Translations under genes and position numbers: made by a program
Source: Desulfurivibrionaceae bacterium
GTDB lineage: Bacteria > Desulfobacterota > Desulfobulbia > Desulfobulbales > UBA5123
Direction of reading: 5' to 3'
DNA: 64,000 nt
Assembly: GCA_030145325.1 (NCBI GenBank)
Contig: JAQYVW010000009.1
Location: 473 to 64,472 of the forward strand
Shown here: piece after piece, positions 13,101-56,678 of the stretch
How the letters are laid out: each line of letters starts with the position of its first letter
Position numbering within the stretch: position 1 is the first letter of the stretch
Notes under the pieces: model-generated
The model's input: only the letters and a program-made list of their open reading frames with translations
Told to the model about the DNA's origin: nothing
Database searches by the model: none

Positions 13101-13644
13101 AGGAACCGGCCTTGGCCTCTCCACCGTTCTCGGCCTGGCTCGAAGCTATAACGGCGGTGTCACCGTGAAAAGCACTCCCGACCAAGGCAGCGTTTTTACA
13201 GTTTACCTCCCCATCATCGCTCAAGAAGAAAGCAGAGACGCTGACGAAGAGAGCGGGGCAACACAACATATTTCCGCGCGCATCCTCTTTGTTGATGATG
13301 AGGAAACCATCGTCCGCCTTGGCAAAATAACCTTGGAGCGCCTGGGCTGCGAGGTGACTGCCCTCAGCAGCGGCGTTGACGCTCTGGCCCTGTTTAAACA
13401 AAACCCACAACGGTTTGACATGGTTATCACCGACCAGACCATGCCGGGCCTCACCGGCGCAGCACTGTCGCGACATATCCTTGCCATCCGACCAGAACTA
13501 CCGATTATTATGGCCACCGGCTACAGTGAAACAATCAACGCAGAACAGGCTGAAGAAATCGGCATCAGGGAACTGCTCATGAAGCCGCTGGATCTGCATG
13601 ATTTTGAACGAGTCATCATTCGCAATCTGCCCCCCAAAGTTTGA
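10174..13644 (+). CDS. Hybrid sensor histidine kinase: DUF3365-like CXXCH sensor, multiple PAS, HisKA-HATPase, C-terminal receiver
   Basis: The extracytoplasmic region after the N-terminal TM segment contains CLKCH (nt 10744-10758) within the KFVRMMRPL...CLKCH...GD.RGG context typical of DUF3365. Several PAS-like segments follow. The H-box is AHDFNNIL, the G-boxes are GTGLGLS, and the receiver contains VDDEE...DQTMPGLTG. Confidence 0.85.
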
Positions 13645-35774: not shown

Positions 35775-36182
35775 TCATTGCACACCCTTGCTATTCAAGA
35801 AGGCGCTGTACTTCATGTCGGTACCGATAATATGTTTGTCCAGCCAATTTTTCAAAAAATTCATCACTTCAATGGTCATCGCCGCCTGCCCAGACTTAAA
35901 CTGGCGCTGGAGGTCAAGAACCTTGGCGGTCATCTTCACATGTTTATCCTTGTGATCCTGATACCCTTCATAACCATGGGTCTGTAACAACCCCTCTTCA
36001 AGGGCAAAATGGCTGGCGGCATAGGAAACAAGCTTATCAAGAATGGCGCCGAGGGCATCCTTGGCCTTACCCTGGGCCATGGCGTCGTTCAGTTCGTTGA
36101 TCATGTCAATCAAAACCTTATGCTGGTCATCAATTTGCTTAATTTTCACACTGTACGCATCTTTCCAAGTTAACAAGGCCAT
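35775..36182 (-). CDS. Bacteriohemerythrin
   Basis: It has W...YSV....ID.QHK.L......L and His/Asp/Glu iron ligands in the H...E / H....H / H....D spacing. Confidence 0.85.
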   Translation of the reverse strand: MALLTWKDAYSVKIKQIDDQHKVLIDMINELNDAMAQGKAKDALGAILDKLVSYAASHFALEEGLLQTHGYEGYQDHKDKHVKMTAKVLDLQRQFKSGQAAMTIEVMNFLKNWLDKHIIGTDMKYSAFLNSKGVQ

Positions 36183-36300: not shown

Positions 36301-36714
36301 TCAGCGCACCCCACGGGAAGTAAGAAAATCCCGGTATTCCATATCAGTGCCAAGAATATGCTGATCAAGCCATTGCAAGAGAAAATGCATAACGTCAATA
36401 CTCATTGCCACCCGCCCCTGACGAAAATCGTTCTGAAACGCCCGCACTTTGGCAGTCATCTGTTCATGCACCCTTTGGTGCGAAGCAGAACCGGCAAAAC
36501 CGTGTTCGTTCATCAACCGCTCTTCGGTAATGAAATGAGTGGCCGTATAGTTGACAAGTTGATCAAGAATCCCCTCAAGAACATTCTTGGCCCTTTCTGA
36601 GGCCATGGCATCATTGAGTTCATTCATTATCGCAAACATCCGTTGGTGCTGGGCGTCAATCTCACTGATGCCAACACTGTGTTTTTCCTTCCATTGTAAA
36701 AGAGACATCAACAA
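36301..36714 (-). CDS. Bacteriohemerythrin (paralogue)
   Basis: It shares the hemerythrin signature of the neighbouring gene (WKEKHSVGISEIDAQHQRMF...HF..EE..M). Confidence 0.85.
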   Translation of the reverse strand: MLMSLLQWKEKHSVGISEIDAQHQRMFAIMNELNDAMASERAKNVLEGILDQLVNYTATHFITEERLMNEHGFAGSASHQRVHEQMTAKVRAFQNDFRQGRVAMSIDVMHFLLQWLDQHILGTDMEYRDFLTSRGVR

Positions 36715-39793: not shown

Positions 39794-40225
39794 ATGATGG
39801 CTGAGAAACGCAAGAAATACAAAATACTGATCGTCGATGATGATCAAAACATCCTGAACATGCTGGATCTGGCGTTCATTAATACGTCCTACGATATCAC
39901 CACCATCGATCACCCCTTACACGCTTACAAAATGATCGAAAACGAACATTACGACATGGTGATCAGCGATATCCAGATGCCACAGATGGACGGCCTGACC
40001 CTGCTCCGCAAGATCAAAAACTTTAACGGTATGATCCAGGTTGTGATGATGACCGCCCACATTTCCATCAGCAACACCCTGGACGCCTTTCGCTACGGCG
40101 CGGTGGATATATTTTTTAAACCGTTCGCGGATATCAATGAAATCATTCTCGCCGCCGACGGGGTGGCTGCAAAACTGGACAGGGTAAACAACATCTTACG
40201 CCAGCTAACCGATGGAGACAGATAA
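39794..40225 (+). CDS. Single-domain CheY-like response regulator
   Basis: It is a 143-aa REC domain (ILIVDDD...DIQMPQMDG...FKP). Its stop codon is 3 nt before the start of CheA-1. Confidence 0.85.
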   Translation: MMAEKRKKYKILIVDDDQNILNMLDLAFINTSYDITTIDHPLHAYKMIENEHYDMVISDIQMPQMDGLTLLRKIKNFNGMIQVVMMTAHISISNTLDAFRYGAVDIFFKPFADINEIILAADGVAAKLDRVNNILRQLTDGDR

Positions 40226-40228
40226 GCC

Positions 40229-42553
40229 ATGAGCAGCGAAATGGATCTTGATGCCCTGCATGGCTTTCTCGATGAGTCAAGCGACTCCATGCAAGGCATT
40301 GAAGCAGACTTTATCGATCTCGAAAGAGATCCGACCAATATGGAGATCATCAACCGGATATTCCGCCCCATTCACAGCCTGAAAGGGAACTCCGGCTTCT
40401 TCGGCCTAACCAACATCAACAAATTCGCCCACCGCTTGGAAAACCTTCTCGACACCGTCAGACGAGGTGAACTTGCGATCACCAAAGAGATCATCGACAC
40501 CCTTCTCATCGGTGCAGATTTTCTTCGCCAAATGGTGGAACGGGTCTATGAGGACCCCACCGACGTCCTTTTGCGTGACAACGAAGAAGAGTTTTTAGGC
40601 AAGGTCGAACAATTCAAACCGGAAAAACCAACCGGCTCAATTGAGAGCATCCTGACCCTTGAAAAACTCGTCAACGAGGCGATGGATCACGGCATCTCCC
40701 CCACGGACAACACGTTAATCAGTACCCTGCTGGGAAAAATCGAAAAAGCCAACCAAGAAATCAAGCTCATCCTCAGTGACGTCAAAAACGCCGACTCCAC
40801 TGCCAAGCGATCCACCGCCGCCGCTTATATGATTGGTGATGAGGATCACTCCGCAGTGGTCAAACCGCTGCTTGATGTTGCAAGCCAAATGGACAAAAGA
40901 GCAACGGTTGACCGCCAACTCCTAGCTGAGTTCGAAAAATCCCTGGTCACCCTGAACGAGCTTCTTAAAGACGACAGTGACGCCGCCCATGAGTTAGAAG
41001 AACTGCAATCCATGAGCAACTTTCTTGACGATGAATTACTCATCACCAGCCAAGAATTCACCTCATCGACCACAGCATCCATTGATGCCGTTCTGAGCAA
41101 ATTCGACATCGTCAAAACCGAAAGCAAAGATATCGAAGCTGAATCATTTGGCAAGCTCGGAGAAATCCTTATCTCCCAAGACAAGGTCTCACCGGAACAA
41201 CTCACCGATGCGCTTAAAAAACAGAAGAAAGTTGGTGAAATACTGGTGGACGATGGCATTCTCAAGGACCAAGACCTCAAGGAAGCATTAACCATCCAGC
41301 AAAAAAATGCCTTGGCAGAGCATACCAAAAATGAACCTGTTGCTCGCGAAGTTAAAAAAACCATCCGTATCGATCAAGACAAGCTGGACAGTTTTGCCAA
41401 CTTCGTCGGCGAGCTGTTTATCAATATCGATTCTTTCAGCTTCCTGAAAAAGCAATTGGAAGAAACCGACGTCGACTTTGACCTCATGGCCCGCTTCACC
41501 AATACCATCACCTCCCTTGACGAGATGGTGGACACCCTGCAAGAAAGCATCATGGGGATCAGAAAGGTGCCCATCGACACCCTATTCAAACGCTTCCCCC
41601 GCGTAATCCGCCAACTAGCAGGCTCACTGAACAAGGATATCAACTTCAAAATCGTTGGCGAAGATACCGTCATCGACAAAGATCTGCTGGAAAAAATCGA
41701 GAATCCACTGGTCCATATGCTGCGAAATTCGGTGGATCATGGCATCGAAACGCCCGAAGAACGAACCAACAACAACAAGTCTGGCACCGGCACCTTGGAA
41801 CTGAAAGCGGCGGTGGATGAAAATTATGTTTATATCACCATCAACGATGACGGTAAGGGCATTGACCCGCAGATCATCAAGAAAGTGGCGCTGAAGAAAG
41901 AGCTCATCACCCCGGAAGAAGCTGAACAGATGCCAGACAAGGAGTTGATCAACCTCATCTTCAAACCGGGCTTCAGTTTAGCCGAAAAAATCAGCGATGT
42001 CTCAGGACGCGGCGTCGGCATGGATGTGGTGCAGTCGGTATTAAAAGAAACCAGCGGCACGGTGGAGGTAAACTCGGTAATTGACCAAGGCACTAAGGTT
42101 ACGATTAAGATTCCGTTAACCAAAACCCTGGTTGCCAAGGAGGCAATGATTGTTTCCGCTTATGAGCGAACACTGGCCATCCCCTCCGAGGATATTACCG
42201 CCACCATTGAAGCTAAGGACGAGGAAGCAACAAGACTTTTTTCCGGCGACAATTGTATCCAATACCACGGCGCGATTTATCAAGTCATCGATCTTGGCGC
42301 TTTCCTATTCCCCAAAACCATCCGCCAGCGACAAGATGCAGACCGGCATGTTATTATTGTCAGTGAAAAACATAACATCGCCCTATTAGTTGACGAAGTA
42401 TTGAGCCACCAAAAAATTGTCGTCAAAAACTTCACCGGCGGGTACAAAGCTTTAGACAGGGTCCGAGGCATCAACGGCTTTACAATCTTGGGTAACGAGG
42501 ATATTATCCTCATTGCCGATGTACAAAATATTACCGCCCACGCTGTTGATTAA
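40229..42553 (+). CDS. cheA: CheA-type histidine kinase 1 (Hpt, MshEN-like motif pair, dimerisation, HATPase, CheW-like)
   Basis: It has Hpt (FRPIHSLKGNSGFFGL), a P3 region (IRIDQDKLDSFANFVGEL), a kinase core (HMLRNSVDHGIE, DDGKGID, GRGVGMDVV) and a C-terminal CheW-like domain. The LGEILI.../VGEILV... tandem motif lies at aa 309-358. Confidence 0.9.
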   Translation: MSSEMDLDALHGFLDESSDSMQGIEADFIDLERDPTNMEIINRIFRPIHSLKGNSGFFGLTNINKFAHRLENLLDTVRRGELAITKEIIDTLLIGADFLRQMVERVYEDPTDVLLRDNEEEFLGKVEQFKPEKPTGSIESILTLEKLVNEAMDHGISPTDNTLISTLLGKIEKANQEIKLILSDVKNADSTAKRSTAAAYMIGDEDHSAVVKPLLDVASQMDKRATVDRQLLAEFEKSLVTLNELLKDDSDAAHELEELQSMSNFLDDELLITSQEFTSSTTASIDAVLSKFDIVKTESKDIEAESFGKLGEILISQDKVSPEQLTDALKKQKKVGEILVDDGILKDQDLKEALTIQQKNALAEHTKNEPVAREVKKTIRIDQDKLDSFANFVGELFINIDSFSFLKKQLEETDVDFDLMARFTNTITSLDEMVDTLQESIMGIRKVPIDTLFKRFPRVIRQLAGSLNKDINFKIVGEDTVIDKDLLEKIENPLVHMLRNSVDHGIETPEERTNNNKSGTGTLELKAAVDENYVYITINDDGKGIDPQIIKKVALKKELITPEEAEQMPDKELINLIFKPGFSLAEKISDVSGRGVGMDVVQSVLKETSGTVEVNSVIDQGTKVTIKIPLTKTLVAKEAMIVSAYERTLAIPSEDITATIEAKDEEATRLFSGDNCIQYHGAIYQVIDLGAFLFPKTIRQRQDADRHVIIVSEKHNIALLVDEVLSHQKIVVKNFTGGYKALDRVRGINGFTILGNEDIILIADVQNITAHAVD

Positions 42554-42733: not shown

Positions 42734-44047
42734 ATGGGAACAATGGAATCAGATATTTTCAAGGAAGAAGCTTATGATCTTCTTGATGATATAGAAGAAG
42801 CACTCCTTGAATTACGTGACAACCCCGCTGACAGCGAACTAATTAACCGCCTATTCCGCGCCTTTCATACCATCAAGGGATCGGGGGCCATGTTCGGCTT
42901 CAAAGAGGTGTCAAAATTCACCCATGAGGTGGAAACCGCCATCGACAAAATCCGCGAAGGGACCGGGGTGGTGCCGGACGCACTGCGCGAAGTCCTTCTC
43001 ACCGCTCGCGACCAGATCCTCGCCATGATCGAGACGGAAGACCCTGACGCCCCAGAGATTCAGGAAGCGGCACAACTCATCCTCAAGCAACTGGCGCCTG
43101 CTGTCTCAGCAAAAGAAGCGCCACCCGTACAGCAGCCCCCCACCCCCAAGCCTGAACCTGCCGCCGCCCCGCCCGTTATTGCCACGGAAATGCCGACAGT
43201 CCCAAAAACAGAGCCCAAAATCAATAAAGATCCGGACCCTGAAACGCAAGCGCTGCTAACCGAACTTGCAGAACTACTCAATGAAGTTCGAGACTTGTTA
43301 CAAAAACTGCACGAAGAACCCGGCGCCAATAAACTTTGCAAAAAGCTCCACCGATCAATTCATACCGTTGCCGGCACAGCGGCCATGTATGACATGGAAG
43401 CCCTTGCCGAATTCAGCAACAAACTTACCGATATCACTGCCACCATCAAACAAGCTGAAGAACCAGTCAATGATGAAGTGTTAAAAGTACTCACCGCAGC
43501 TATCGACCACTGCTTTTCCCTTCTCCGTTCCACCGACCCATCGGGGCAGGTTCTACAAAGACGCTCAGGCAAAATTACCACCGAACTTGAAGCAATGGTC
43601 AACAAAGACCAAACCAGTATCGGAACAGCGCCGGAAACTTTACGATTCCTTATTGTTGAAGACGAATTCATTAGCCGTTACCTTCTCCAAGAATTCCTGA
43701 CTCCATACGGTAATAGCCATGTTGCCATAGACGGTTACGAGGCTGTCTTGGCTTTTAAAAACGCCATTATCGAAAAGAAACCATACAATATCGTCTGTCT
43801 CGATATCATGATGCCGGGACTTGATGGTCGACAAGTGGCCAAAGAAATTCGCCGCCTGGAAAAAGAAATGGGCAACAACAATTTCTGCAAGATAGTAATG
43901 ACCACGGCTTTAGACGACGAAAGCATCAAGAACGAGTTATTGTCAGATAAACGGTGTGATGCCTATCTGACCAAACCCATACGATTTGAAGACCTTGACC
44001 AATTAATAAAATCATACTTTCCAGACTTCAATACGACAAATAGCTAA
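42734..44047 (+). CDS. Hpt-Hpt-REC phosphorelay protein
   Basis: It has two Hpt signatures (FRAFHTIKGSGAMFGF; HRSIHTVAGTAAMYDM) separated by a Pro-rich linker. A C-terminal receiver follows (FLIVEDEF...DIMMPGLDG...TKP). Confidence 0.85.
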   Translation: MGTMESDIFKEEAYDLLDDIEEALLELRDNPADSELINRLFRAFHTIKGSGAMFGFKEVSKFTHEVETAIDKIREGTGVVPDALREVLLTARDQILAMIETEDPDAPEIQEAAQLILKQLAPAVSAKEAPPVQQPPTPKPEPAAAPPVIATEMPTVPKTEPKINKDPDPETQALLTELAELLNEVRDLLQKLHEEPGANKLCKKLHRSIHTVAGTAAMYDMEALAEFSNKLTDITATIKQAEEPVNDEVLKVLTAAIDHCFSLLRSTDPSGQVLQRRSGKITTELEAMVNKDQTSIGTAPETLRFLIVEDEFISRYLLQEFLTPYGNSHVAIDGYEAVLAFKNAIIEKKPYNIVCLDIMMPGLDGRQVAKEIRRLEKEMGNNNFCKIVMTTALDDESIKNELLSDKRCDAYLTKPIRFEDLDQLIKSYFPDFNTTNS

Positions 44048-44190: not shown

Positions 44191-46500
44191 ATGTCCGACA
44201 AGCTGACGGATGAACAAGTAGAGATCATTGAAGAGTTCATTTGTGAAGTCCGCGACCTGATAGAGACTGCGGAGTCCGATATAATCGGTTTATCCTCCAT
44301 TTACAAAAACAATGAGTCCCAAACCTCAACCGAAAACCTAAAAACTCTTCACACCATCTTTCGTTGCTTCCATTCCATCAAGGGTGGCGCAGCCTTCCTG
44401 CAGTTCAACAATATGGTCACTTGCGCGCACAGCGCGGAAAATCTTCTCGATCTACTCCGAAATGATGAAATAACCCTTCTGCCAGGGCATATCGATCTGC
44501 TCTGCCAAGCCTGCGACTTCATCTCGATTGCTCTGGAACAACTTGAAACCAACCTCAATGATCACGAGCTCACAGAGCAAGCTAACGCCATCCACGATAA
44601 ATTTGAACGCGCCATCGCTGGTATCCCAGAACCGGAAGAATCCCCATCTGAGAACGAAAGCAATGACGACAGTTTATTAATCAATCTTGACCTCAACCCT
44701 TCTCAACTTATCAACCCGGACACACTTCACCATTTCATCGAGGAGTCCAGGGAACTTATTCAGAAAAGCGAAGCGGCTTTACTTGACTGGAGCAAAAACC
44801 CTAACGACTCCGACCCAGAACTAGTTGCGCAACTTTTTCGCAACATTCACAGCATTAAAGGCAACAGCGGTTTTCTCGGATTCTCCGACATGGAGCGCTT
44901 GGCCCACGGGATGGAGAACCTCCTTGATGCTGCCAGAGAAGGCGCCGCCATTAACCGCGGCAAAGCAGCAGAGACCCTCTTGGGGCTTGTAGACATAATC
45001 AGTCATGCCATGGAAGATATCGCCCAGGGAGAAGAATGTAAAATCAAAGGCATAGGCCTTCATCTCGAGGCATTGGCTGATCTTCTCCCCGACACCCCTT
45101 CCTCCAATGTACCGTTACCAAAACTTGGTGAAATTCTTGTCGATCAAGGCGTTGTCAGTGAAGACGCCCTGGAAAATGCCTTGGATGTCCAGAATAAACC
45201 TCTCGGTGAAATCCTGGTCGAAACCGGCGCAGCCACAGAAGAGCAAGTCGCGCAGGCCGTGCAAACTCAGAAGAAACAAGCAATCGTCCCAGGCAAGGCC
45301 ACAAAAACAACCGCTCGTCAGGACATCCGAGTTGACCTCGGCAAACTTGACAGTCTCATCAACCTCATCGGCGAAATGGTTATTGCTGAAAATATGTTGA
45401 TCAACAACCCTGATCTGCAAGATCTGGAATTGGAAAATTTCAACAAAGCCGGCCAGCACATGGACAAAATCATCCGTGAATTACAGGAAATGGCCATGTT
45501 TATCCGCATGGTGCCGGTGGCAGGCCTCTTTCGGCGCATGACCCGGCTGGTACATGATCTTTCCCGAAAATCCGGCAAAAAAGTTGACCTGCAACTGGTT
45601 GGAGAGACCACCGAGGTCGACAAAACGGTTATCGAATTAATTACTGACCCCCTGGTTCACCTTCTTCGCAACTCCATGGATCACGGCCTTGAGCCCCCAG
45701 AGGAACGCTTGCAAGCAGGCAAAAAAGATACCGGGATTCTACGTTTGTCCGCAACCCATGAAGAAGGCGAAGTCCTGATCACCATCACCGATGATGGGCG
45801 GGGGTTGAACAGAGAAAAAATCATCGCTAAAGCCATGGAAAAAGGTGTCCTTGACGATGATGGATCTCAGATGAGCGATTCAGATGTCTTTAACCTCATT
45901 TTCCTGCCCGGCTTTTCCACCGCCGACCAGGTTACCGATGTTTCTGGTCGCGGTGTTGGGATGGATGTGGTTCGCAAGAACCTTGAAAAGATCAAGGGCA
46001 AAATTGAAATTAAGAGCAAGCAAGGGGGCGGCACCACCATTATCTTGCGCATTCCGCTGACCCTGGCAATCATCGACGGGATGATGATCCGGGTGGGCAC
46101 TGCGCTATACATCGTGCCGCTTCTCTCAATCCGCGAATCATTCCGTCCCAGCCACGAATTGATTACCGTTTCTCCAGATGGTCAAGAACTGGCCAAGGTA
46201 CGCGAGAACCTGCTGCCGGTGGTGAGACTCCACGATCTTCACAAAATCAGCCCAGACTTCGATGAACTAGACAAAGGTATCCTCATTGTCCTTGAAGGCC
46301 AGGATCTTAATTTTTGCCTTTTTGTCGACGAAATCATGGGTCAGCAACAGACGGTTATCAAAGGTCTATCAGAATACATCTCCGTACTTGGCAATGTCGG
46401 CGGTGTTTCCGGCTGCACCATTCTCGGCAATGGCGATGTCTGCCTGATCCTTGATGTACATTCATTGGTGGATGTCGCTCTCAGCGATAACGAAGAGTGA
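44191..46500 (+). CDS. cheA: CheA-type histidine kinase 2 (two Hpt domains, MshEN-like motif pair, dimerisation, HATPase, CheW-like)
   Basis: It has Hpt1 (FRCFHSIKGGAAFLQF), Hpt2 (FRNIHSIKGNSGFLGF), a P3 region (IRVDLGKLDSLINLIGEM), a kinase core (HLLRNSMDHGLE, DDGRGL, GRGVGMDVV) and a CheW-like C-terminus. The tandem LGEILV motif lies at aa 311-360. Confidence 0.9.
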   Translation: MSDKLTDEQVEIIEEFICEVRDLIETAESDIIGLSSIYKNNESQTSTENLKTLHTIFRCFHSIKGGAAFLQFNNMVTCAHSAENLLDLLRNDEITLLPGHIDLLCQACDFISIALEQLETNLNDHELTEQANAIHDKFERAIAGIPEPEESPSENESNDDSLLINLDLNPSQLINPDTLHHFIEESRELIQKSEAALLDWSKNPNDSDPELVAQLFRNIHSIKGNSGFLGFSDMERLAHGMENLLDAAREGAAINRGKAAETLLGLVDIISHAMEDIAQGEECKIKGIGLHLEALADLLPDTPSSNVPLPKLGEILVDQGVVSEDALENALDVQNKPLGEILVETGAATEEQVAQAVQTQKKQAIVPGKATKTTARQDIRVDLGKLDSLINLIGEMVIAENMLINNPDLQDLELENFNKAGQHMDKIIRELQEMAMFIRMVPVAGLFRRMTRLVHDLSRKSGKKVDLQLVGETTEVDKTVIELITDPLVHLLRNSMDHGLEPPEERLQAGKKDTGILRLSATHEEGEVLITITDDGRGLNREKIIAKAMEKGVLDDDGSQMSDSDVFNLIFLPGFSTADQVTDVSGRGVGMDVVRKNLEKIKGKIEIKSKQGGGTTIILRIPLTLAIIDGMMIRVGTALYIVPLLSIRESFRPSHELITVSPDGQELAKVRENLLPVVRLHDLHKISPDFDELDKGILIVLEGQDLNFCLFVDEIMGQQQTVIKGLSEYISVLGNVGGVSGCTILGNGDVCLILDVHSLVDVALSDNEE

Positions 46501-46668
46501 TTCACCCGCATCGCACGTCCCTCCCCGCCCTCCACACTACAAAGCTGTAAACATCCCACGACTTTGTTAACAATTACGTAACACTCACCCCACACCTTTC
46601 TCGCTCGCCCCTTCACCCTACGTATAAAAAGTTCCTAATTACAACACAATGAGATGGCTGTTCCAGCC

Positions 46669-46685
46669 TGGCACATTTCGTGCAT
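46669..46685 (+). promoter_or_regulatory. Putative sigma-54 (-24/-12) promoter for MCP-1
   Basis: The sequence is TGGCACATTTCGTGCAT. GG and GC are separated by exactly 10 nt, as in the TGGCAC-N5-TTGCW consensus. It lies about 110 nt upstream of the MCP-1 ATG. Confidence 0.55.
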
Positions 46686-46794
46686 TTCCTTCTCAAGTTC
46701 GAGGAAGATGCTCAATCACCTTCACTGGTCTAAAAAATGGCATCGTCAAAACAAAAAAGCCATTACCGGCCTTTCATTTTATGGAGAACTATTA

Positions 46795-49737
46795 ATGTTC
46801 AAGAATCTTAAACTTACCAAAAAACTCCTTATTGCTTTTCTCGGCGTAGGGCTAATCCCTTTTGCTGCCGTTGGCCTTACCGCTCTACTTAAAGCCAGTA
46901 GCGCCCTTGATCAGTCGGCATTTAATCAATTGCAGTCGGTTCAGGCAATCAAGAAAGCTCAGATCCAACGCTTCTTCACCGAGCGTAAAGGCGACATGGC
47001 CGTGTTACTGAATACCACTGCCGCTTTTGACGATGAGGTAAGCAGTAAAATTTACGCCATCCAAAACAACAAGAAAGAAGCGCTGGAACTGATCAGCCAG
47101 CAATGGTTCACCGATATCAAGATCCAGCAAGGTCAGGACATTTCCAGCAAAGGTTTGCCGCACTTCCAAAATTATCTCAAAACAGGCAAGAAATCGGCGC
47201 AATACAAACACTACGCCACGCAAGTTTCGCAATTCATGAAGGCCACCGGCTACTACGATTACTTTGTCATCGACAAATCCGGCCTTTGCGTCTTCACCGA
47301 CGCCAAGGAGGCGGATTACAAAACAAACCTTCTTAACGGCCCCTACAAAGACTCCGGCCTTGGAGTCGCCACCAAACGCGCCTTCAATGGAGAAACAGCC
47401 ATTGAAGATTTCGCTTCCTATGCACCCTCAAACGGCGCCCCAGCTGCTTTTATTGCTGCCCCGATCCGAAGAGGGAAAAACATCATCGGGGTTGTCGCCC
47501 TGCAAATCCCCCATGAAAAGGTGCAAGCCATTGTTGCCGAACGCACCGGCCTCGGCATAAGCGGCGAGGCTTACCTTGTGGGCAGAAAGGACGGCAAAAC
47601 CGGCTATCGCAGCAATCGCGTCATCAAGAACGGCAAGCTCGGCCAGGATAAAAATGGTGCCGACATCAACAAGGCGCTGGTAGGCGAAGCAGGGGTTCGC
47701 TTCAAGAAGGGCAGCACCGGCGACATGGAACTGGTCGCCTATACACCGGTTAAGATCCCCGGCCTTGACTGGGCTTTAATCACCTCCATGAGTCTCGAAG
47801 AGGCCATGGCTCACAAAGAAAAAGGCGATAAAGAGGATTACTTTGCAAAATACGTCAGGCAATACGGCTACTACGACCTCTTCCTGATTGAACCGGAAGG
47901 CAAGGTTTATTACTCGGTGACCCATGAGGCCGATTACGATACCAATATGATTAATGGCAAGTACGCCGATTCCGGGCTCGGTAAACTGGTCCGCCGGGTT
48001 ATTCAGGAAAAGAAATACGGGGTAGCAGACTTCGCCCCCTATGCACCCAGCAACAACGAACCAGCCGCTTTCATCGCCGCTCCTGTTTTTCGCAACGGCG
48101 AACTCCAACAGATCGTCGCCCTGCAACTGTCACTGGAGGCGATCAACAACATCATGCAGCAGCGTGAAGGGATGGGCGAAACCGGCGAGACTTATCTGGT
48201 TGGCCCGGACAAACTTATGCGTTCGGACTCCTTCCTTGACCCCACCAATCATTCGGTCAAAGCCTCGTTTGCCAACCCAACCACCGGCAGTGTCAACACC
48301 GAGGCCGCCCGCGAAGCACTGGCCGGACAGTCCGATTCTAAAATCATCATCGACTATAACGGCAATCCGGTTCTTTCCGCCTACACCCCACTGAAGGTTG
48401 GCGACAGCACCTGGGCAGTCATCGCCGAAATTGATGAAGCAGAGGCCTTTGCGGCCATCAACACCTTGAAATGGGTAATAGGTATCGTCTTTGTCGTCGG
48501 CATGGCCGCCATTATCGTCGTTGCCCTGACCATCACCCGTTCCATCACTCAGCCGGTGAGCAAAACCGTCCTCATGCTTGACGAGATGGCCAAGGGTCAC
48601 CTGGACAACCGACTAAACATGGATCGAGGCGACGAGATCGGCCAGATGGCTAAGACCATGGACTCTTTTGCCGATAGTTTGCAAAACGAAATGGTGGCAG
48701 CGCTGAACAAGCTGGCTGACGGCGACCTAACCTTTGATGCCAATCCACACGATGAGAATGACACCATCAGAAACTCGCTGAAAAAAACCGGTGACGACCT
48801 GAACAAACTGATCTCCGAAATCCTCACCGCCACCGAACAGATCGCCAGCGGTTCCGGCCAGGTTTCCGATTCCAGCCAGGCCCTCTCCCAAGGGGCGACA
48901 GAACAGGCGGCATCACTTGAGCAGATCACCAGCTCCATGACCGAGATGGGCTCACAAACCAGATTAAACGCCGAGAACGCCACCCAGGCCAATCAGTTAG
49001 CCAGCCAGACCAGGAGTGCAGCAGAAAGCGGCAATACGAAAATGCAGGAGATGGTCTCGGCCATGGGTGAAATCAACGAGGCGGGCCAAAGCATCTCCAA
49101 GATCATCAAGGTTATTGATGAGATTGCCTTTCAGACCAACCTACTGGCCTTGAACGCGGCAGTGGAAGCGGCCCGGGCCGGGCGTCATGGCAAGGGTTTT
49201 GCGGTGGTTGCAGAAGAGGTACGCAACCTGGCTGCCCGTAGCGCCAAGGCAGCTAAAGAAACCGCAGAGCTCATCGAAAGCTCGGTGGAAAAAACCAAGA
49301 ACGGCACCCAAATCGCCGAGGCGACCAGCGAGGCACTGGCCGAAATAGTCGGCTCGGTCACCAAGGTCACCGATCTTGTCGGCGAAATCGCTGCCGCTTC
49401 TAATGAGCAGGCGCAAGGAATCAACCAGACAAATCAGGCCTTGGGCCAGATCGATCAGGTAACCCAGCAGAACACCGCCAGCGCCGAAGAGAGCGCCGCT
49501 GCCTCGGAAGAGCTTTCCGGCCAGGCCATGCACATGAAAGAGATGATGAGCCGCTTCCGGGTCCGCGACATGGGCCAAGGAGGGATGCGCCAGCAACCCA
49601 TGTCACGGCAACAAAACGGCTGGGGAAACGCAACGCAACAACCACTGCCGCAACCACAGGCCCCAGGCCATTTACCCCGCCCCTTTGCGCCAAGTGAAAT
49701 AATAACCTTGGACGACAAGGAATTCGGTAAATATTAA
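46795..49737 (+). CDS. Methyl-accepting chemotaxis protein 1 (duplicated double-Cache-like periplasmic sensor, HAMP, MA domain)
   Basis: I set the start at the ATG at 46795, which has a GGAG Shine-Dalgarno 8 nt upstream and aligns with the MF(K/S)..KL..KLLIAFL N-termini of the other two MCPs. The signalling hairpin is [21 protein letters not shown]. The ORF-track start at 46654 adds 47 non-homologous residues. Confidence 0.9.
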
Positions 49738-49762
49738 TCGCTATAATAGCGAATGTTTCCAA

Positions 49763-49797
49763 ATGGCGTCCCTAGGTTCAGGGACGCCATTTTTTTT
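49763..49797 (+). terminator. Rho-independent terminator after MCP-1
   Basis: ATGGCGTCCCT pairs with AGGGACGCCAT in an 11-bp stem with a 6-nt loop, followed by T7. Confidence 0.85.
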
Positions 49798-49931
49798 AAT
49801 TTTTTTCTATCAAATAACTACCCAAAAGCGTTCAACAAAAGTGTACACATCTATTCAATTTTGTTGAACATTCACCTTACGCCTAACAATGCACATATGC
49901 ACAACACCTTTAAATCATTGTAAAAAATAAT

Positions 49932-49960
49932 TTGACAGCTTTACAACAGTTACTGATAAT
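49932..49960 (+). promoter_or_regulatory. Putative sigma-70-type promoter of cheW-mcp cassette 1
   Basis: TTGACA (49932-49937), a 17-nt spacer, then GATAAT (49955-49960). The block is conserved in cassette 2. Confidence 0.55.
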
Positions 49961-50095
49961 AAAAATCCTAGGCATTCTCAGTTGGTAATATCATAAAACA
50001 CTGCCCCTTAACCCCATTTCCAAAAGACTCCTTTGGCAACCTCACTTTCGCAACAGGAATTGCTAAAATAGAGCATTTTAACAAGGAGAGAAGCT

Positions 50096-50602
50096 ATGGC
50101 TGAAGATCAAGTTGTCGACATGGAGGATGATCTCTACGACGACGAAGACACCATGAAGGACAAGTACCTCACCTTCCATCTGGCCGGTGAGGATTACGGC
50201 CTTGACATCGTTTTTGTCACCGAGATCATCGGCATCCAGAAAATCACCGAAGTGCCGGACATGCCTAACTTTGTTAAGGGGGTAATCAACCTACGCGGCA
50301 AGGTAATCCCGGTGATGGACGTACGGTTACGTTTCAACTTGCAGGAACGTGATTACGACGAACGCACCTGTATCGTAGTCGTTGATATTAACGGCACCGC
50401 CGTCGGCCTTGTTGTTGATCAGGTCAACGAGGTGGCCGATATCCCCGAGGCACAGGTCGAGCCGCCCCCACGCACCACCAAGGGGACGACCAGCCGCTTC
50501 TTAAAGGGCATGGGCAAGGTGGATGAAGAAGTCCGCATCCTGCTCAATGTCGACAAGCTGCTCTACGACGAAGAAATGGAAATGCTTGCTGGTGCGGCGT
50601 AA
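50096..50602 (+). CDS. cheW: CheW coupling protein (copy 1)
   Basis: It is a 168-aa canonical CheW domain with an acidic N-terminal extension (MAEDQVVDMEDDLYDDED). Confidence 0.9.
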   Translation: MAEDQVVDMEDDLYDDEDTMKDKYLTFHLAGEDYGLDIVFVTEIIGIQKITEVPDMPNFVKGVINLRGKVIPVMDVRLRFNLQERDYDERTCIVVVDINGTAVGLVVDQVNEVADIPEAQVEPPPRTTKGTTSRFLKGMGKVDEEVRILLNVDKLLYDEEMEMLAGAA

Positions 50603-50648
50603 TCTTTCCTGAGAAAAAATCACAACATAACAAATAACGAGGTGAACA

Positions 50649-53588
50649 ATGTTTAGTAGACTTAAATTGGGCCAAAAACTTCTTATCGCCTTCCTCTGCG
50701 TCGGGGTTATCCCCTTTGCGGTGGTCGGCCTAAGTTCGCTGATCAAGGCCAGTAATGCCTTGGAGTATGCAGCCTTCAACCAGCTGAACGCCGTTCAGGG
50801 AATCAAAAAGAAACAGATTGAAAATTTCTTCAACGAGCGCAAAGGCGACATGACGGTTTTGCTTGATACCATTGAAACATTTGTCGATGAAAACGCCGAC
50901 AAAATGTTGGCCATCCAGAAGAACAAGAAGGAAGCCATTGAAGAGATTGGTGAGCAATGGATCTTGGATGTTGAAGGAATGTCCGACGATGATCTTCTCA
51001 GCGAAGGCATAGATCACTGTAAGCAATTTATTAAAACCGGCAAAAAAACCGCAGCATATCGTGAATTTTCCCTTGAAGTTGATACGTTTACCAAAAGGTC
51101 CGGCTATTACGATTTCTTCGTCATCGACACAACGGGTCTTTGTGTCTACAGCACTGCCAAAGAAGCGGACTACAAATCAAATCTCCTCACCGGTCCCTAC
51201 AAAAATAGCGGCCTGGGCCACGCCACCCGCAACGCCATGCAGGGCAAGACTTACATTGATGACTTTTCCCCCTACGCCCCTTCAAACGGTGAGCAGTCTG
51301 CTTTTATTGCCGCCCCGATTAAAGATGGCGACAAGATTGTCGGGGTTGTAGCTTTACAGATCCCCACCGACGAGATTCAAGCCATCACGGCTGACCGCAC
51401 CGGCCTTGGTCACAGCGGCGAAGCGTACCTGATCGGCACTCTTGACGGCCAGATCGCGATGCGCTCCAATCGGACCGTCAAGAGTGACAAAATCGGCGAC
51501 GCAAAAAAAGGACAAGATATCGACAAGGCCATGGCTGGCGAAACCGGTTGGATGTTCAAGAAGGGCAGCAGCGGCGCCATGGAGATGAGTACCTATACCC
51601 CTCTTGAGATCCCCGGTCTTAAATGGGCGATGGTCACCTCCATGAGCCTAGAGGAGGCAATAGCCAAAAAAGAAGAAGGCGCTAGCGAGGATTACTTCTC
51701 TCGTTATATCCAGCAGTACGGCTATTACGATCTCTTCCTCATTGAACCGGGTGGGCAAGCGTATTACACGGTGAGCAAGGAGGCGGATTACAAAACCAAC
51801 ATGGTAAACGGAAAATACGCCGACTCGAACTTGGGCGAACTGGTCCGGCAGGTCCTGCAAACCAGGCAGTACGGGGTGGCCGATTTCGCCCCTTACGCAC
51901 CCTCAAACAACGAACCCTGCGCTTTTATCGCTGCTCCGATCATCCACCAAGGCAAGGTGGAACAGGTCATCGCCATGCAGTTGTCGCTTGAAGCGATCAA
52001 CTCCATCATGCAACAACGCGACGGGATGGGCGAAACCGGAGAAACCTACTTGGTCGGCCCTGATAAGTTGATGCGTTCCGATTCCTTTCTTGACCCCACC
52101 AACCATTCGGTCAAGGCCTCCTTTGCCAACCCGGCCACCGGTAGCGTTGACACCGAGGCCGCCCGCGAGGCCCTGGCAGGCAGGAACGATGCCAAGATCA
52201 TTATTGATTACAACGGCCAACCGGTTCTTTCCGACTATGCACCGCTGAAGATCGGTGACAAAACCTGGGCAGTCATCGCCGAGATCGATGAGGCCGAGGC
52301 CTTTGCCGCCGTCAACTCCTTGAAATGGGTAATAGGCATCGTCTTTGTCATCGGCCTCGGTGCCATTATATCCGTAGCGTTGATGATCACCCGCTCCATT
52401 ACCCAACCGGTAACCAAAACCGTGCACATGCTTGAGGAGATGGCCAAGGGCCACCTGAATATCCGCCTCAACATGGACCGTGCCGATGAAATCGGCCAGA
52501 TGGCCAAAACCATGGACGCCTTTGCCGACAGCCTGCAGAACGAGATGGTGGCGGCGCTCAACAAACTGGCCGCTGGCGATCTCACCTTTGACGCCACCCC
52601 CCATGATGAAGCCGACGCGATTAGAAACTCTCTGAAGAAGACCGGAGACGATCTCAATACCCTGATCAGCGACATCCTCACCGCCACCGAACAGGTGGCC
52701 AGCGGTTCTGGCCAGGTCTCAGACTCCAGCCAATCCCTCTCTCAAGGTGCCACCGAACAGGCGGCCTCCCTGGAAGAGATCACCAGTTCAATGACCGAGA
52801 TGGGCTCACAGACCAAGTTGAATGCCGAAAATGCCACCCAGGCCAACCAATTGGCAGGCCAAACCAAAACTGCGGCTGAAGGCGGCAACGCCAAAATGCA
52901 GGAGATGGTCACCGCCATGGGCGAGATCAACGAGGCAGGGCAAAACATCTCGAAGATCATCAAGGTTATCGACGAGATCGCCTTCCAGACCAACCTGTTG
53001 GCCTTAAACGCAGCGGTGGAAGCCGCCCGCGCCGGTCGCCATGGCAAGGGCTTTGCCGTGGTCGCCGAAGAGGTCCGCAATCTCGCCGCTCGTAGCGCCA
53101 AAGCGGCCAAGGAAACCGCCGAGCTCATCGAGGGCTCGGTGGAAAAAACCAAGAACGGTACCAAAATCGCCGAAGCAACCAGCGATGCATTGGCCGAAAT
53201 CGTTACCTCGGTCACCAAGGTGACGGACCTGGTCGGTGAGATCGCCGCCGCCTCCAACGAGCAGGCGCAGGGGATCAACCAGACCAATCAGGCCTTGGGC
53301 CAGATCGATCAAGTGACCCAGCAGAACACCGCCAGCGCTGAAGAGAGTGCGGCGGCCTCGGAAGAACTATCCGGGCAGGCCATGAACATGAAAGAAATGA
53401 TGAGCCGCTTCACGGTTCGTGATATGGGCAGCGGCTCTGGCCGTCAGCAAGCCTCCCTGCCGAGTCCAACTCAATCCACGCCACAAAACGGCTCTTGGGG
53501 AGGAGGCCAGCAAACAGCCGCGAGAAAATCCGCTCCGGCCCCCAGCGACCTCATCGCCCTTGACGACAAGGAGTTCGGCAAGTACTAA
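50649..53588 (+). CDS. Methyl-accepting chemotaxis protein 2 (duplicated double-Cache-like sensor, HAMP, MA domain)
   Basis: It is a full-length paralogue of MCP-1 with the same architecture and the same C-terminal LDDKEFGKY tail. Confidence 0.9.
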
Positions 53589-53611
53589 CAACGTAAAAAT
53601 ATCATAAAAAA

Positions 53612-53650
53612 ATGGCGTCCCTGGTTTTCCCAGGTGACGCCATTTTTTTT
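53612..53650 (+). terminator. Rho-independent terminator after MCP-2
   Basis: ATGGCGTCCCTGG pairs with CCAGGTGACGCCAT (one bulge), followed by T8. It is homologous to the MCP-1 terminator. Confidence 0.85.
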
Positions 53651-53780
53651 ACTATTTCTATCGACCTACCACAAGAAGGCAGTTCAACAGATTTGAACAT
53701 ATGTTCTCAGTTTTGTTTAACATTTCACAAGACCTAACCACAAGCACACCCACACCTTCAACATAATTACAAAAAATAAT

Positions 53781-53810
53781 TTGACACCTTCATGTACGTC
53801 TGCTGATAAT
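53781..53810 (+). promoter_or_regulatory. Putative sigma-70-type promoter of cheW-mcp cassette 2
   Basis: TTGACA (53781-53786), a 17-18-nt spacer, then (T)GATAAT. It is a paralogous copy of the 49932 promoter block. Confidence 0.55.
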
Positions 53811-53944
53811 AAAAACTCTAGGCATTATCAGTTGGCAATATAGTAAGATCCTAATCCTTATCACCATCACAAAATGTTCTTTTGCAACTACACCTCCGCA
53901 AGAGGAATTGCAAAAACAGAACACTTTAAACCAGGAGAGAAGCA

Positions 53945-54451
53945 ATGGCAGAAGATCAAGTTGTCGACATGGAGGATGACCTCTACGACGACGAAGACAC
54001 CATGAAGGACAAGTACCTCACCTTTCACCTGGCCGGTGAGGATTACGGCATCGACATCGCCTTTGTCACTGAGATTATCGGTATCCAAAAGATTACCGAA
54101 GTTCCGGACATGCCTGACTTTGTCAAGGGGGTAATCAACCTGCGCGGCAAGGTGATCCCGGTGATGGATGTGCGCTTGCGCTTTCATCTGGATGAGCGCG
54201 ATTACGACGAACGCACCTGTATCGTGGTGGTTGATATCAACGGCACTGCTGTCGGTTTGGTGGTTGATCAGGTTAACGAAGTAGCCGACATCCCGGAAGC
54301 GGATGTGGAGCCGCCGCCCCGCACCACCAAGGGTAGCAGCAGCCGCTATCTAAAAGGAATGGGCAAGGTGGAAGAACAAGTCCGCATCCTCCTGAATGTG
54401 GACAAACTACTCTACGACGAAGAAATTGAACAAATCGTCGCGGCAGCTTAA
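53945..54451 (+). CDS. cheW: CheW coupling protein (copy 2)
   Basis: It is 168 aa. By my manual alignment it differs from copy 1 at 16 positions. Confidence 0.9.
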   Translation: MAEDQVVDMEDDLYDDEDTMKDKYLTFHLAGEDYGIDIAFVTEIIGIQKITEVPDMPDFVKGVINLRGKVIPVMDVRLRFHLDERDYDERTCIVVVDINGTAVGLVVDQVNEVADIPEADVEPPPRTTKGSSSRYLKGMGKVEEQVRILLNVDKLLYDEEIEQIVAAA

Positions 54452-54497
54452 TCAATCGCCACAACAACACTTTATAAAACTAAAATGAGGTATTCAT

Positions 54498-56678
54498 ATG
54501 TTCAGTAGACTGAAACTAGGTCAAAAACTTCTTATCGCCTTCCTCTGCGTCGGGGTGATCCCCTTCTCGGTGGTAGGTCTCACCGCCTTGCTCAAAGCCA
54601 GCGCCGCCTTAAATCAATCCTCCTTTAACCAGCTCAATGCGGTGCAGGGGATCAAGAAAGCGCAGATCACCACCTTCTTTGACGAACGGCATGGCGATAT
54701 GAACGTGCTGGTGAACACGGTGGGCAATTTCATTAAAGAAGCCGGCACCATTGATGCCGCCATGGCAGGCCTGACCGAGGGAGGTACTGACTACTTCGCC
54801 GACTACATCAAGGATTACGGTTACTATGACCTCTTCCTCATTGACGCTCAGGGGAAGGCGTTCTACACCGTCGCCAAGGAGTCTGATTACAACAGTAACT
54901 TTGTCAACGGCAAGTACGCCAGCTCCAACCTGGGCAAACTGGTTCGTCAGGTCATCCAGACCAGACAATACGGGATGGCCGATTTCGCCCCTTACGCCGC
55001 CAGCAATAACGAGCCATGCGGCTTCATCGCCGCGCCACTTATTGAAAATGGTGAGGTAAAATTGGTCATCGGTCTACAGTTGTCGCTGGAAGCAATGAAC
55101 CGGATTATGCAACAGCGCGACGGGATGGGCAAAACCGGCGAAACCTATCTGGTCGGTTCCGACAAGTTGATGCGTTCTGATTCCTTCCTTGACCCCACCG
55201 GCCATTCGGTTAAAGCCTCTTTTGCCAACCCAGCCACCGGCAGTGTCGACACCGAGGCCGCCCGTGATGCGCTGGCCGGGCGCACCGATTCGAAAATCAT
55301 CATCGACTACAACGGCAACCCGGTTCTCTCCTCCTATGCACCAATGAAAATCGGCGACACCACCTGGGCGGTTATCGCCGAGATCGACGAGTCGGAAGCC
55401 TTTGCCGCCGTCAACGCCTTGAAATGGGTCATCGGCATCGTCTTTGTCATCGGTGTGGCCGGTATTATCACCGTGGCCCTGATGATCACTCGCTCCATCA
55501 CCCAGCCGGTGGGCAAGACGGTACACATGCTCGAGGAAATGTCCAAAGGCCACCTTGACTTACGCCTTAACATGGACCGCGCCGATGAGATCGGCCAGAT
55601 GGCCAAAACCATGGACTCCTTTGCCGACAGCCTGCAAAAAGAGATGGTGGGCGCGCTAAACATGTTAGCCGACGGCGATCTTACCTTTGACGCCACCCCC
55701 CAAGACGAGAACGACGCCATCAGGAACTCGCTGAAGAAAACCGGCGATGACCTCAATATCCTGATCACCGATATCCTCACCGCCACCGAACAAGTGGCCA
55801 GCGGCTCCGGCCAGGTATCAGATTCCAGCCAAGCCCTTTCCCAGGGTGCCACTGAACAGGCAGCATCCTTGGAAGAGATCACCAGTTCCATGACCGAGAT
55901 GGGCTCTCAAACTAAACTGAATGCCGAAAACGCTACTCAGGCTAACCAGTTGGCCAGTCAGACCAAAACCGCTGCGGAAGGCGGCAACGCCAAGATGCAG
56001 GAAATGGTTTCGGCCATGGGCCAGATCAACGAGGCAGGTCAGAATATCTCCAAGATCATCAAGGTTATCGATGAGATCGCCTTTCAAACCAACCTTCTTG
56101 CCTTAAACGCAGCCGTGGAAGCGGCACGGGCTGGTCGTCATGGCAAGGGCTTTGCTGTGGTTGCCGAAGAGGTACGAAACCTCGCCGCTCGTAGCGCCAA
56201 GGCCGCTAAAGAAACCGCTGAGCTCATTGAAGGGTCGGTGGAAAAAACCAAGAACGGCACCGCCATCGCCGAATCAACCAGCGAAGCGTTGGCTGAAATT
56301 GTTTCCTCCGTAACCAAGGTGACTGATCTGGTGGGAGAAATCGCTGCCGCTTCCAACGAACAGGCCCAAGGCATCAACCAGACCAATCAGGCCCTGGGCC
56401 AGATTGATCAAGTAACCCAACAGAACACTGCCAGCGCCGAAGAAAGTGCGGCCGCCTCGGAAGAGCTTTCCGGCCAAGCGATGAATATGAAAGAGATGAT
56501 GAGCCGCTTCAAGGTTCGCGACATGGGCCGTAGCGCCGGAATACGCCAACAACCTACAAGGCCAACGCCGCAGCAAAACGACTGGGGTACCAGTCAGCAA
56601 AAACCGCTGCCGAGAGCTCAGGCTCCTGCCGCCCATGAGGTTATAGCCTTGGATGACAAGGAGTTTGGTAAATACTAA
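54498..56678 (+). CDS. Methyl-accepting chemotaxis protein 3 (single double-Cache-like sensor, HAMP, MA domain)
   Basis: Its N-terminus, TM segments, HAMP, MA domain and tail match MCP-2. It lacks the first sensor module, roughly 250 aa. Confidence 0.9.

Follow-up and report, generated by a model that had tools for sequence, protein, structure and literature searches.

Does a chemotaxis histidine kinase of a Desulfurivibrionaceae bacterium carry a cyclic-dinucleotide sensor within its own chain? The question is raised by a 64,000-nucleotide stretch of contig JAQYVW010000009.1 (assembly GCA_030145325.1), hereafter called the window, in which two genes of one chemosensory cluster, CheA-1 and CheA-2, encode CheA kinases with a tandem pair of 24-residue motifs of the MshEN_N type. 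In MshE, PilF, NfrB, and relatives, MshEN_N is a ∼50-residue four-helix bundle of two helical hairpins that holds one extended molecule of cyclic di-GMP (c-di-GMP). We regard CheA-1 residues 309–357 and CheA-2 residues 311–360 as almost certainly genuine MshEN_N homologs on the grounds of homology and fold. To nucleotide binding coupled to kinase modulation we assign a probability of roughly 50%–55%, higher for CheA-2 than for CheA-1.

A tandem motif upstream of the dimerization domain

The initial annotation had pointed to a motif pair at residues 309–358 of CheA-1. Window positions 41153–41302 (forward strand) translate to KLGEILISQDKVSPEQLTDALKKQKKVGEILVDDGILKDQDLKEALTIQQ, exactly the peptide it quoted, and residues 309–357 read KLGEILISQDKVSPEQLTDALKKQ-K-KVGEILVDDGILKDQDLKEALTIQ. 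The features of the two kinases are as follows (aa, amino acids; ORF, open reading frame; E, E-value).

40229..42553, + strand: CheA-1 gene, a 774-aa ORF with Hpt, helical region, MshEN_N, P3, P4, and P5
40259..40546, + strand: Hpt (P1) of CheA-1, aa 11–106 (PF01627, E 1.1e-13), with the phospho-acceptor His49 within HSLKGNSG
40577..41113, + strand: all-helical middle region of CheA-1, aa 117–295 (AlphaFold2 secondary structure), including a four-helix unit at aa 208–289 (predicted local distance difference test, pLDDT, 85–92)
41153..41224, + strand: MshEN_N motif 1 of CheA-1, aa 309–332, KLGEILISQDKVSPEQLTDALKKQ, predicted helices 309–316 and 322–330
41225..41227, + strand: inter-motif spacer of CheA-1, one residue, K333 (canonical length, five residues)
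41228..41299, + strand: MshEN_N motif 2 of CheA-1, aa 334–357, KVGEILVDDGILKDQDLKEALTIQ, predicted helices 335–341 and 347–366
41357..41557, + strand: P3 dimerization domain of CheA-1, aa 377–443 (PF02895, E 6.7e-09), AlphaFold2 helices 383–413 and 417–445
41699..42121, + strand: P4 kinase domain (HATPase_c) of CheA-1, aa 491–631 (PF02518, E 1.1e-17)
42143..42541, + strand: P5 (CheW-like) of CheA-1, aa 639–771 (PF01584, E 3.8e-16)
44191..46500, + strand: CheA-2 gene, 769 aa, with Hpt, Hpt, MshEN_N, P3, P4, and P5 (ORF and Pfam)
45121..45270, + strand: MshEN_N of CheA-2, aa 311–360, KLGEILVDQGVVSEDALENALDVQ-NK-PLGEILVETGAATEEQVAQAVQTQ, both motifs matching the relaxed pattern, two-residue spacer

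Motifs were scored against the relaxed 24-residue MshEN pattern of Wang et al. (2016), [RKPN]hGxxhhxx[GAS]hhxxxxhxxxhxx[QNKRYWST]. The two halves of the CheA-1 pair scored as had been described: motif 2 showed no mismatch at any constrained position, and motif 1 failed only at positions 10 (Asp, not Gly, Ala, or Ser) and 11 (Lys, not hydrophobic), the very Asp and Lys that had been remarked on at the G(I/F) positions. The former is a turn position and the latter a core position; neither is a ligand contact. The CheA-2 copy is the cleaner of the two, with both motifs perfect. Across the six-frame ORFs of the window (53,998 residues), three exact matches to the relaxed pattern were found, all within CheA-1 and CheA-2, compared with 0.12 expected from shuffles.

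Apart from this insertion both proteins are conventional kinases, with Hpt, H-kinase_dim, HATPase_c, and CheW all above the Pfam gathering thresholds, and His49 of CheA-1 is invariant across 61 orthologs. A P2 family, on the other hand, gave no Pfam match at E ≤ 1 in CheA-1. In the full-length AlphaFold2 model (mean pLDDT 79.5), the N-terminal half consists of the Hpt (1–108), helices at 117–193, and the confident four-helix unit at 208–289, after which come a low-confidence linker (298–307), the MshEN_N bundle (310–367), a second low-confidence linker (369–378), and P3 from residue 383, its helix starting 26 residues past the motif. Residues 117–295, for which no Pfam family was found at E ≤ 1, are modeled as helical save for two strands of 3–4 residues. 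Judged by this model, CheA-1 appears to have no alpha/beta P2, with MshEN_N in the last position before P3. The idea that the motif sits between Hpt and P3 in place of P2 thus stands insofar as no P2 is detectable and the domain precedes P3, but it does not directly follow the Hpt: ∼200 residues, predicted to be helical at 117–295, intervene, and the P1–P3 interval holds ∼180 residues of helical structure besides MshEN_N.

Homology to MshEN_N

NCBIfam holds a curated 53-position model for this domain, NF053729 ("cyclic di-GMP-binding domain, MshE-related"; cut-off 38 bits), which matched CheA-1 residues 309–357 end to end (1–53/53, 43.8 bits) and CheA-2 residues 311–360 over the same full span (52.6 bits), both above the cut-off. 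We also built a hidden Markov model (HMM) from 14 MshEN_N sequences in the supplement of Wang et al. and ran it on 412 window ORFs; the two kinases were all that it retrieved, CheA-2 at 47.2 bits (E 2.7e-14) and CheA-1 at 42.1 bits (E 1.1e-12), and the third-ranked ORF scored just 3.8 bits. A profile-to-profile comparison (hhalign) of 61 CheA fragments with 13 published MshEN_N domains gave 99.2% probability (E 2.2e-19) over 54 aligned columns, and the sole indel was a 4-residue gap falling exactly at the spacer. When CheA-1 residues 290–375 were searched against all PDB sequences with phmmer, the best match was Thermus PilF (E 2.9e-10). Further matches at E < 1 were PilF's GSPII-B domain, which binds c-di-GMP, Geobacter and Myxococcus PilB, and MshE (5HTL, E 0.044), together with a single protein outside the MshEN/GSPII group, the hypothetical protein 1wwp (E 0.12).

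A scan with PF05157 (T2SSE_N) had been proposed as a test that could refute the assignment. Pfam scans gave no PF05157 match at E ≤ 1 in CheA-1, CheA-2, or the 86-aa fragment, but the test proved invalid: the model lacks the first three MshEN_N helices and the binding site (Wang et al. 2016), so a protein with MshEN_N only is expected to score negative and the miss is uninformative. Nor does an MshEN_C (T2SSE_N1) alpha/beta subdomain follow the bundle in CheA-1, which has no bearing on membership in MshEN_N.

The missing PF05157 match and the two mismatches in motif 1 might be taken to mean that an amphipathic helical linker merely resembles a degenerate motif by chance or composition. We rejected a chance match on the strength of the curated HMM, the custom HMM, the hhalign result, and the shuffle counts, and consider this explanation extremely improbable. 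PF05157 does not cover the motif in any case, and the tandem pair recurs, at up to two mismatches per motif, in 109 of the 120 best CheA-1 homologs and in 78 of 116 CheA-2 homologs.

A separate observation concerns DUF4388 (PF14332), which gave a sub-threshold match to a CheA-1 fragment (window 41096–41353; E 3e-4) over one motif-like stretch. A homolog search with a 155-aa fragment returned three weak matches, the best being a DUF4388 protein (P0001, 229 aa). DUF4388 may contain a single MshEN-type hairpin.

Predicted fold

AlphaFold2 was run on CheA-1 residues 297–371 with a 61-sequence alignment. The fragment model consists of four helices (309–316, 322–330, 335–341, and 347–366; core pLDDT 82–89). 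Its top 12 Foldseek matches in the PDB were all PilF GSPII or MshE (5HTL) structures, 11 of them c-di-GMP-bound, with probabilities of 0.87–1.00, template modeling (TM) scores of 0.58–0.64 normalized to the query, and root-mean-square deviations (rmsd) of 0.9–1.8 Å over 54–56 columns, except for 7.9 Å in the case of the nuclear magnetic resonance (NMR) entry 8pkz; the next match had a probability of 0.08. Superposition on a c-di-GMP-bound MshEN structure had been suggested as a check, and the four-helix bundle fits MshE (5HTL) with an rmsd of 1.4 Å over 56 columns (probability 0.97–0.99) and 8PFA with 1.3 Å (probability 1.00). The curated model, the profile alignment, and the fold therefore all bear out the reading of the pair as an MshEN-like domain. 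Helix alpha1 is predicted to begin at K309/L310, straight after the disordered linker, and is therefore nothing like the extended helix that causes occlusion in PilF GSPII-A, a non-binder.

Ligand contacts and their conservation

The structural work on MshE assigns a role to most motif positions (Wang et al. 2016): the side chain at position 1 stacks on guanine; positions 2, 17, and 21 make up a hydrophobic triangle; Gly3 and the residue after it hold the ligand through their backbone amides, and Gln24 holds it through contacts with ribose and phosphate; the core is built from positions 6, 7, 11, and 12; and the turn is provided by Gly10. Binding by MshE is lost in the G11L and G40I variants (Wang et al. 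2016). In CheA-1 the contact positions are all suitably occupied (K309/L310/G311/L325/L329/Q332 and K334/V335/G336/L350/L354/Q357), and the same set (R/K/L/P at 1, hydrophobic at 2, Gly at 3, Leu at 17 and 21, Gln at 24) is kept in both motifs of both kinases. Lysine at position 1 is not a defect, since PilF GSPII-B, which has K167 there, binds c-di-GMP at 6 nM, and the consensus has been formally widened to (R/K/L)LG (PMC11731258).

The contact positions are conserved among CheA homologs. In 107 unique CheA pairs, Leu6 was present in 107/107, Gln24 in 106/107 and 107/107, and Leu21 in 101/107; Gly3 was present in 107/107 but was required by the filter, which partly biases the counts yet imposes neither Gln nor Leu6 specifically. 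An unfiltered full-length alignment of the 61 orthologs agreed, with G336 invariant and G311, Q332, and Q357 conserved in at least 90%. The pair was found in CheA homologs at sequence identities down to ∼30%; Desulfurivibrio alkaliphilus, Thiovibrio sp. JS02, Desulfuromusa kysingii, and Desulfuromonas sp. AOP6 are among the carriers, as are proteins annotated as Syntrophomonas and Sumerlaeota. CheA loci from Ignavibacteria and Spirochaetaceae (L004 and L005) had no motif at ≤1 mismatch and were not counted as carriers.

Among the CheA-1 homologs without the pair, several had a first motif with three mismatches. Five of the 120 had no motif by regular expression: in three (P0092, P0117, and P0122) it was not found upstream of P3 in the stretch inspected, and in two (P0095 and P0098) that stretch stops short of P3. 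The other 38 CheA-2 homologs were of the Desulfuromusa/Desulfuromonas type, and in the ∼6 that we spot-checked the first motif was one residue shorter, for example LLGDYLVEEGVQQDAIFHAVETQ-KK-PVGEILV.

A BLASTP comparison of CheA-1 with CheA-2 gave a main alignment that starts exactly at residues 309/311 and reaches the C-terminus at 35.9% identity. Because it begins at that point, MshEN_N appears, by sequence comparison, to belong to the core shared by the two kinases and to predate the paralog split.

A short spacer typical of CheA

The spacer had been thought to be shorter than canonical, and it is: one residue in CheA-1, compared with five. This is a property of the CheA-embedded pairs as a group. 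Among 187 of them the spacer was one residue in 97 and two residues in 88 (185/187 with 1–2 residues). Of 414 inter-motif gaps outside CheA, 182 had five residues, 58 six, 45 seven, and 31 four (316/414 with 4–7), and just seven had 1–2. The non-CheA gaps were taken from the top matches of an exhaustive search of representative sequences with a CheA-type profile, which yielded 25,969 representative clusters at E ≤ 1e-3 and 3192 at E ≤ 1e-10. Its top 150 were mostly multi-repeat MshEN_N proteins and only four were CheA-like; the search accordingly informs family size and the spacer comparison, not distribution among CheAs. In the literature searched we found no description of a CheA-typical 1–2-residue spacer, which is possibly an undescribed feature.

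Some CheA-like proteins have three or four consecutive MshEN-type motifs, separated by 1–2 residues in P0250, P0262, and P0273 and by seven residues in P0179; iteration of the unit, in odd numbers too, is therefore possible. Five proteins of ∼1160–1180 aa (P0124, P0126, P0127, P0130, and P0133) contain 10–13 MshEN-type motifs each, in blocks of three or four with spacers of 6–8 residues that recur every ∼170–210 residues.

A putative sensor in the P1–P3 tether

What might such a domain do in a kinase? CheA autophosphorylation requires that the tethered P1 reach P4. MshEN_N is well placed to alter that tether, since it is flanked by flexible linkers just before P3. The most likely function, we suggest, is that of a cyclic-dinucleotide sensor in the P1–P3 tether of a P2-less CheA: the ligand would clamp one hairpin to the other and thereby alter how long or how stiff the tether is that brings P1 to the active site of P4, so that autophosphorylation or phosphotransfer would be tuned to the level of the second messenger. 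The ligand would probably be c-di-GMP, bound despite the 1–2-residue spacer; this, and the direction and mechanism of the effect on the kinase, we infer. Isolated MshEN_N has been shown to bind c-di-GMP without MshEN_C, with a dissociation constant (KD) of 0.35 μM, and c-di-GMP raises the melting temperature of VcMshEN by 9 degrees (Wang et al. 2016).

Several observations weigh against a ligand-binding role. On the structural side, the Foldseek E-values of the fragment model are weak (0.24–1.1) because the domain is small, and AlphaFold2 may have learned the fold from 5HTL during training; for these two reasons the fold match is supportive and not independent proof. In the model alpha2 ends ∼2–3 residues early, an ending that seems to accommodate the short connection and that leaves the ligand-contact residue Gln332 in a loop. 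The spacers of CheA-1 (one residue) and CheA-2 (two residues) are shorter than the canonical five and than the 3–5 of the aligned binders (MshE 5, NfrB 4, and Bd2402 3 in the supplement of Wang et al. 2016). In motif 1 of CheA-1, Asp replaces the conserved turn Gly and a core position is occupied by Lys, which resembles the I19R listed for the non-binder XpsE; across the 107 unique pairs, Lys occupies this position in 25, and the turn Gly, kept in 105 in motif 2, is kept in only 34 in motif 1, replaced by Gln, Asn, Lys, or Ala. A consensus motif is moreover insufficient for binding, as the example of PilF GSPII-A demonstrates (PMC12002112). Full-text literature searches turned up neither binding data nor any test of a CheA-embedded MshEN_N, and no GGDEF, EAL, HD-GYP, or PilZ domain was found among the larger window ORFs scanned, several ORFs of at least 120 aa being outside that scan.

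Many of these points would also fit a domain that has lost its ligand and now acts in the P1–P3 tether as a stiff spacer or as a "landing pad" on which proteins dock, for example by standing in as the docking site of the cognate receiver in a CheA without P2. GSPII-A, a well-folded but non-binding MshEN homolog for which a landing-pad role has been proposed, provides a precedent (PMC12002112); the compressed spacer, the off-consensus turn and core positions of CheA-1 motif 1, the variable turn Gly, the absence of P2, and the conservation of a single-domain receiver gene directly upstream are all compatible with it. Conservation of the binding residues argues the other way: Gln24 is near-invariant in both motifs and Gly3 exceeds or equals 90% even in the unfiltered alignment. 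CheA-2, furthermore, matches the motif perfectly, and we know of no interaction between an MshEN_N domain and a receiver. The positions of Gln24 and Gly3 serve mainly ligand contacts in MshE, although the motif-2 Gln is also kept in some non-binders such as Pseudomonas aeruginosa PilB (Wang et al. 2016), so Gln conservation is not decisive. On balance we consider loss of ligand binding the principal competing explanation, possible but clearly less probable than a sensor.

The short spacer, typical of CheAs and rare elsewhere, could alternatively have reshaped the pocket for another ligand such as 3'3'-cyclic GMP-AMP (cGAMP). VcMshEN_N binds cGAMP weakly (KD 3.3e-4 M, i.e., 0.33 mM), and relatives in Desulfuromonadales use cGAMP signaling. 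Yet both half-sites, in which guanine recognition relies on the backbone amides of Gly3 and the residue after it, are intact here; no positive evidence for a changed specificity was found, and an altered ligand seems unlikely to us.

A more specific form of the sensor reading is that CheAs possess an MshEN_N subfamily of their own, with a 1–2-residue spacer and sometimes three or four repeats, older than the paralog split, in which the nucleotide clamp gates the kinase directly. The compressed connection could leave the ligand-free bundle strained or open, and a cyclic dinucleotide would then switch the P1–P3 tether by clamping it; the two paralogous kinases of one cluster, with motifs of different quality, would respond at different thresholds. 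We offer this as speculation and think it rather doubtful as a whole.

The chemosensory cluster

CheA-1 and CheA-2 lie in a cluster whose order is REC-HK (receiver–histidine kinase; 38280), REC (39794), CheA-1, Hpt-Hpt-REC (42734), CheA-2, MCP (methyl-accepting chemotaxis protein), CheW, MCP, CheW, and MCP. The further features are as follows.

39794..40225, + strand: single-domain receiver (CheY-like) gene directly upstream of CheA-1 (PF00072, E 3.6e-26)
42734..44047, + strand: Hpt-Hpt-REC protein between the two CheA genes (Pfam Hpt twice, Response_reg), with a Pro/Ala-rich linker
46654..56678, + strand: MCP, CheW, MCP, CheW, and MCP genes (Pfam MCPsignal, HAMP, CheW)

The Hpt-Hpt-REC protein may be a phosphorelay or phosphate-sink component of the pathway. 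Neither CheB nor CheR was found among the larger window ORFs scanned. The CheW–MCP modules at 50096–53588 and 53945–56678 are tandem duplicates with CheW copies 90% identical; the three MCPs are 74%–84% identical in their C-terminal HAMP and signaling parts, and the N-terminal sensor region of the third is ∼38% identical to those of the other two.

The two kinases differ upstream of MshEN_N: CheA-2 has two true Hpt domains in place of the Hpt and helical region of CheA-1. The middle helical region of CheA-1 is conserved, and its four-helix unit (208–289) has neither a His-x-x-K-G motif nor a Pfam match. The region may be a degenerate Hpt-like bundle, an origin that could not be demonstrated because CheA-1 residues 107–308 had no BLASTP similarity to the CheA-2 N-terminus. 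The single Hpt of CheA-1 is closer to the second Hpt of CheA-2 (37% identity) than to the first (30%).

The pairing of CheA-1 with CheA-2 is also present in two related metagenome-assembled genomes (L001 and L003). In Thiovibrio sp. JS02 (L006, 9577–13750) the CheA-1 ortholog lies between a receiver gene upstream, which is thus kept there as well, and a sigma-54-dependent response regulator (REC-AAA-HTH_8) downstream, a neighborhood suggesting that the output of CheA-1-type kinases may be transcriptional and not flagellar switching. The CheA-2 type of D. alkaliphilus is found within a full chemotaxis operon with CheR, CheB, CheD, and CheX.

Elsewhere in the window, two adjacent hemerythrin-domain genes (35775–36182 and 36301–36714, − strand) lie just upstream of the cluster, and positions 10174–13644 encode a large hybrid histidine kinase that combines a Tll0287-like domain with multiple PAS domains, HisKA, HATPase_c, and REC.

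Comparison with known systems

The fusion of CheA with MshEN_N is not new. It was listed by Wang et al. (2016; Nat Commun 7:12481) in the main text, where MshEN is said to associate with "chemotaxis protein kinase CheA," and in their Supplementary Table 4, and it is recognized by the curated NCBI model. The architecture is thus already cataloged, and the local twists are the absent P2 and the CheA-typical 1–2-residue spacer. In the literature searched we came across no experiment demonstrating a nucleotide sensor within CheA itself. Should the domain bind c-di-GMP and change autophosphorylation, the sessile–motile decision would be linked directly to the chemotaxis kinase, and this across a large clade of Thermodesulfobacteriota and Desulfuromonadales-type CheAs. 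The prediction itself dates from 2016; the value of this locus lies in a defined pair of test proteins, a consensus copy and a partly degenerate one in the same operon, and the short spacer should help to refine the rules on which MshEN-like domains bind ligand.

The closest architectural parallel is the CheA of Aeromonas (Wang et al. 2016, Supplementary Table 4 and Fig. 3c), in which MshEN_N likewise stands directly upstream of P3 with a predicted c-di-GMP input into chemotaxis. That protein keeps P2, its first motif starts with Met in place of Arg or Lys, and its spacer is ∼9 residues in the published alignment, whereas the window CheAs are without P2 and have spacers of 1–2 residues; the function is predicted for both. 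Vibrio cholerae MshE (5HTL) shares the two 24-residue motifs, the four-helix bundle (the 1.4 Å fit over 56 columns), and the conserved contact positions. It differs in its 5-residue spacer, Arg at position 1, MshEN_C, and a type II secretion/type IV pilus ATPase as partner, compared with the 1–2-residue spacer, Lys or Pro at position 1, lack of MshEN_C, and histidine kinase partner of the CheAs.

The best structural and sequence matches are GSPII-B and GSPII-C of Thermus thermophilus PilF (8PDK and others; PMC11731258), both of which bind c-di-GMP. Position 1 of motif I is Lys in GSPII-B, as in both CheAs, and position 1 of motif II is Pro in GSPII-C, as in CheA-2; unlike the CheAs, the two PilF domains have a spacer of normal length, an MshEN_C subdomain, and a pilus ATPase. 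In PilF GSPII-A (PMC12002112) and the N-domain of Xanthomonas XpsE (Wang et al. 2016) the fold persists without ligand binding, and GSPII-A stayed inactive even with the consensus restored. K319, in core position 11 of CheA-1 motif 1, has a parallel in XpsE I19R. In these non-binders, however, Gly3 and/or Gln24 is lost or alpha1 is extended and occluding, whereas the CheAs keep Gly3 and Gln24 and start alpha1 at the motif.

Second-messenger control of chemotactic or motor output is itself familiar. In the literature searched, Cbp1, a PilZ-domain chemoreceptor of Azorhizobium caulinodans, and the Cle proteins, c-di-GMP-binding CheY-like proteins of Caulobacter, are examples of such modulation. 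As described there, it is exerted by separate proteins, at the receptor or at the motor, whereas the putative sensor considered here would be built into the central kinase.

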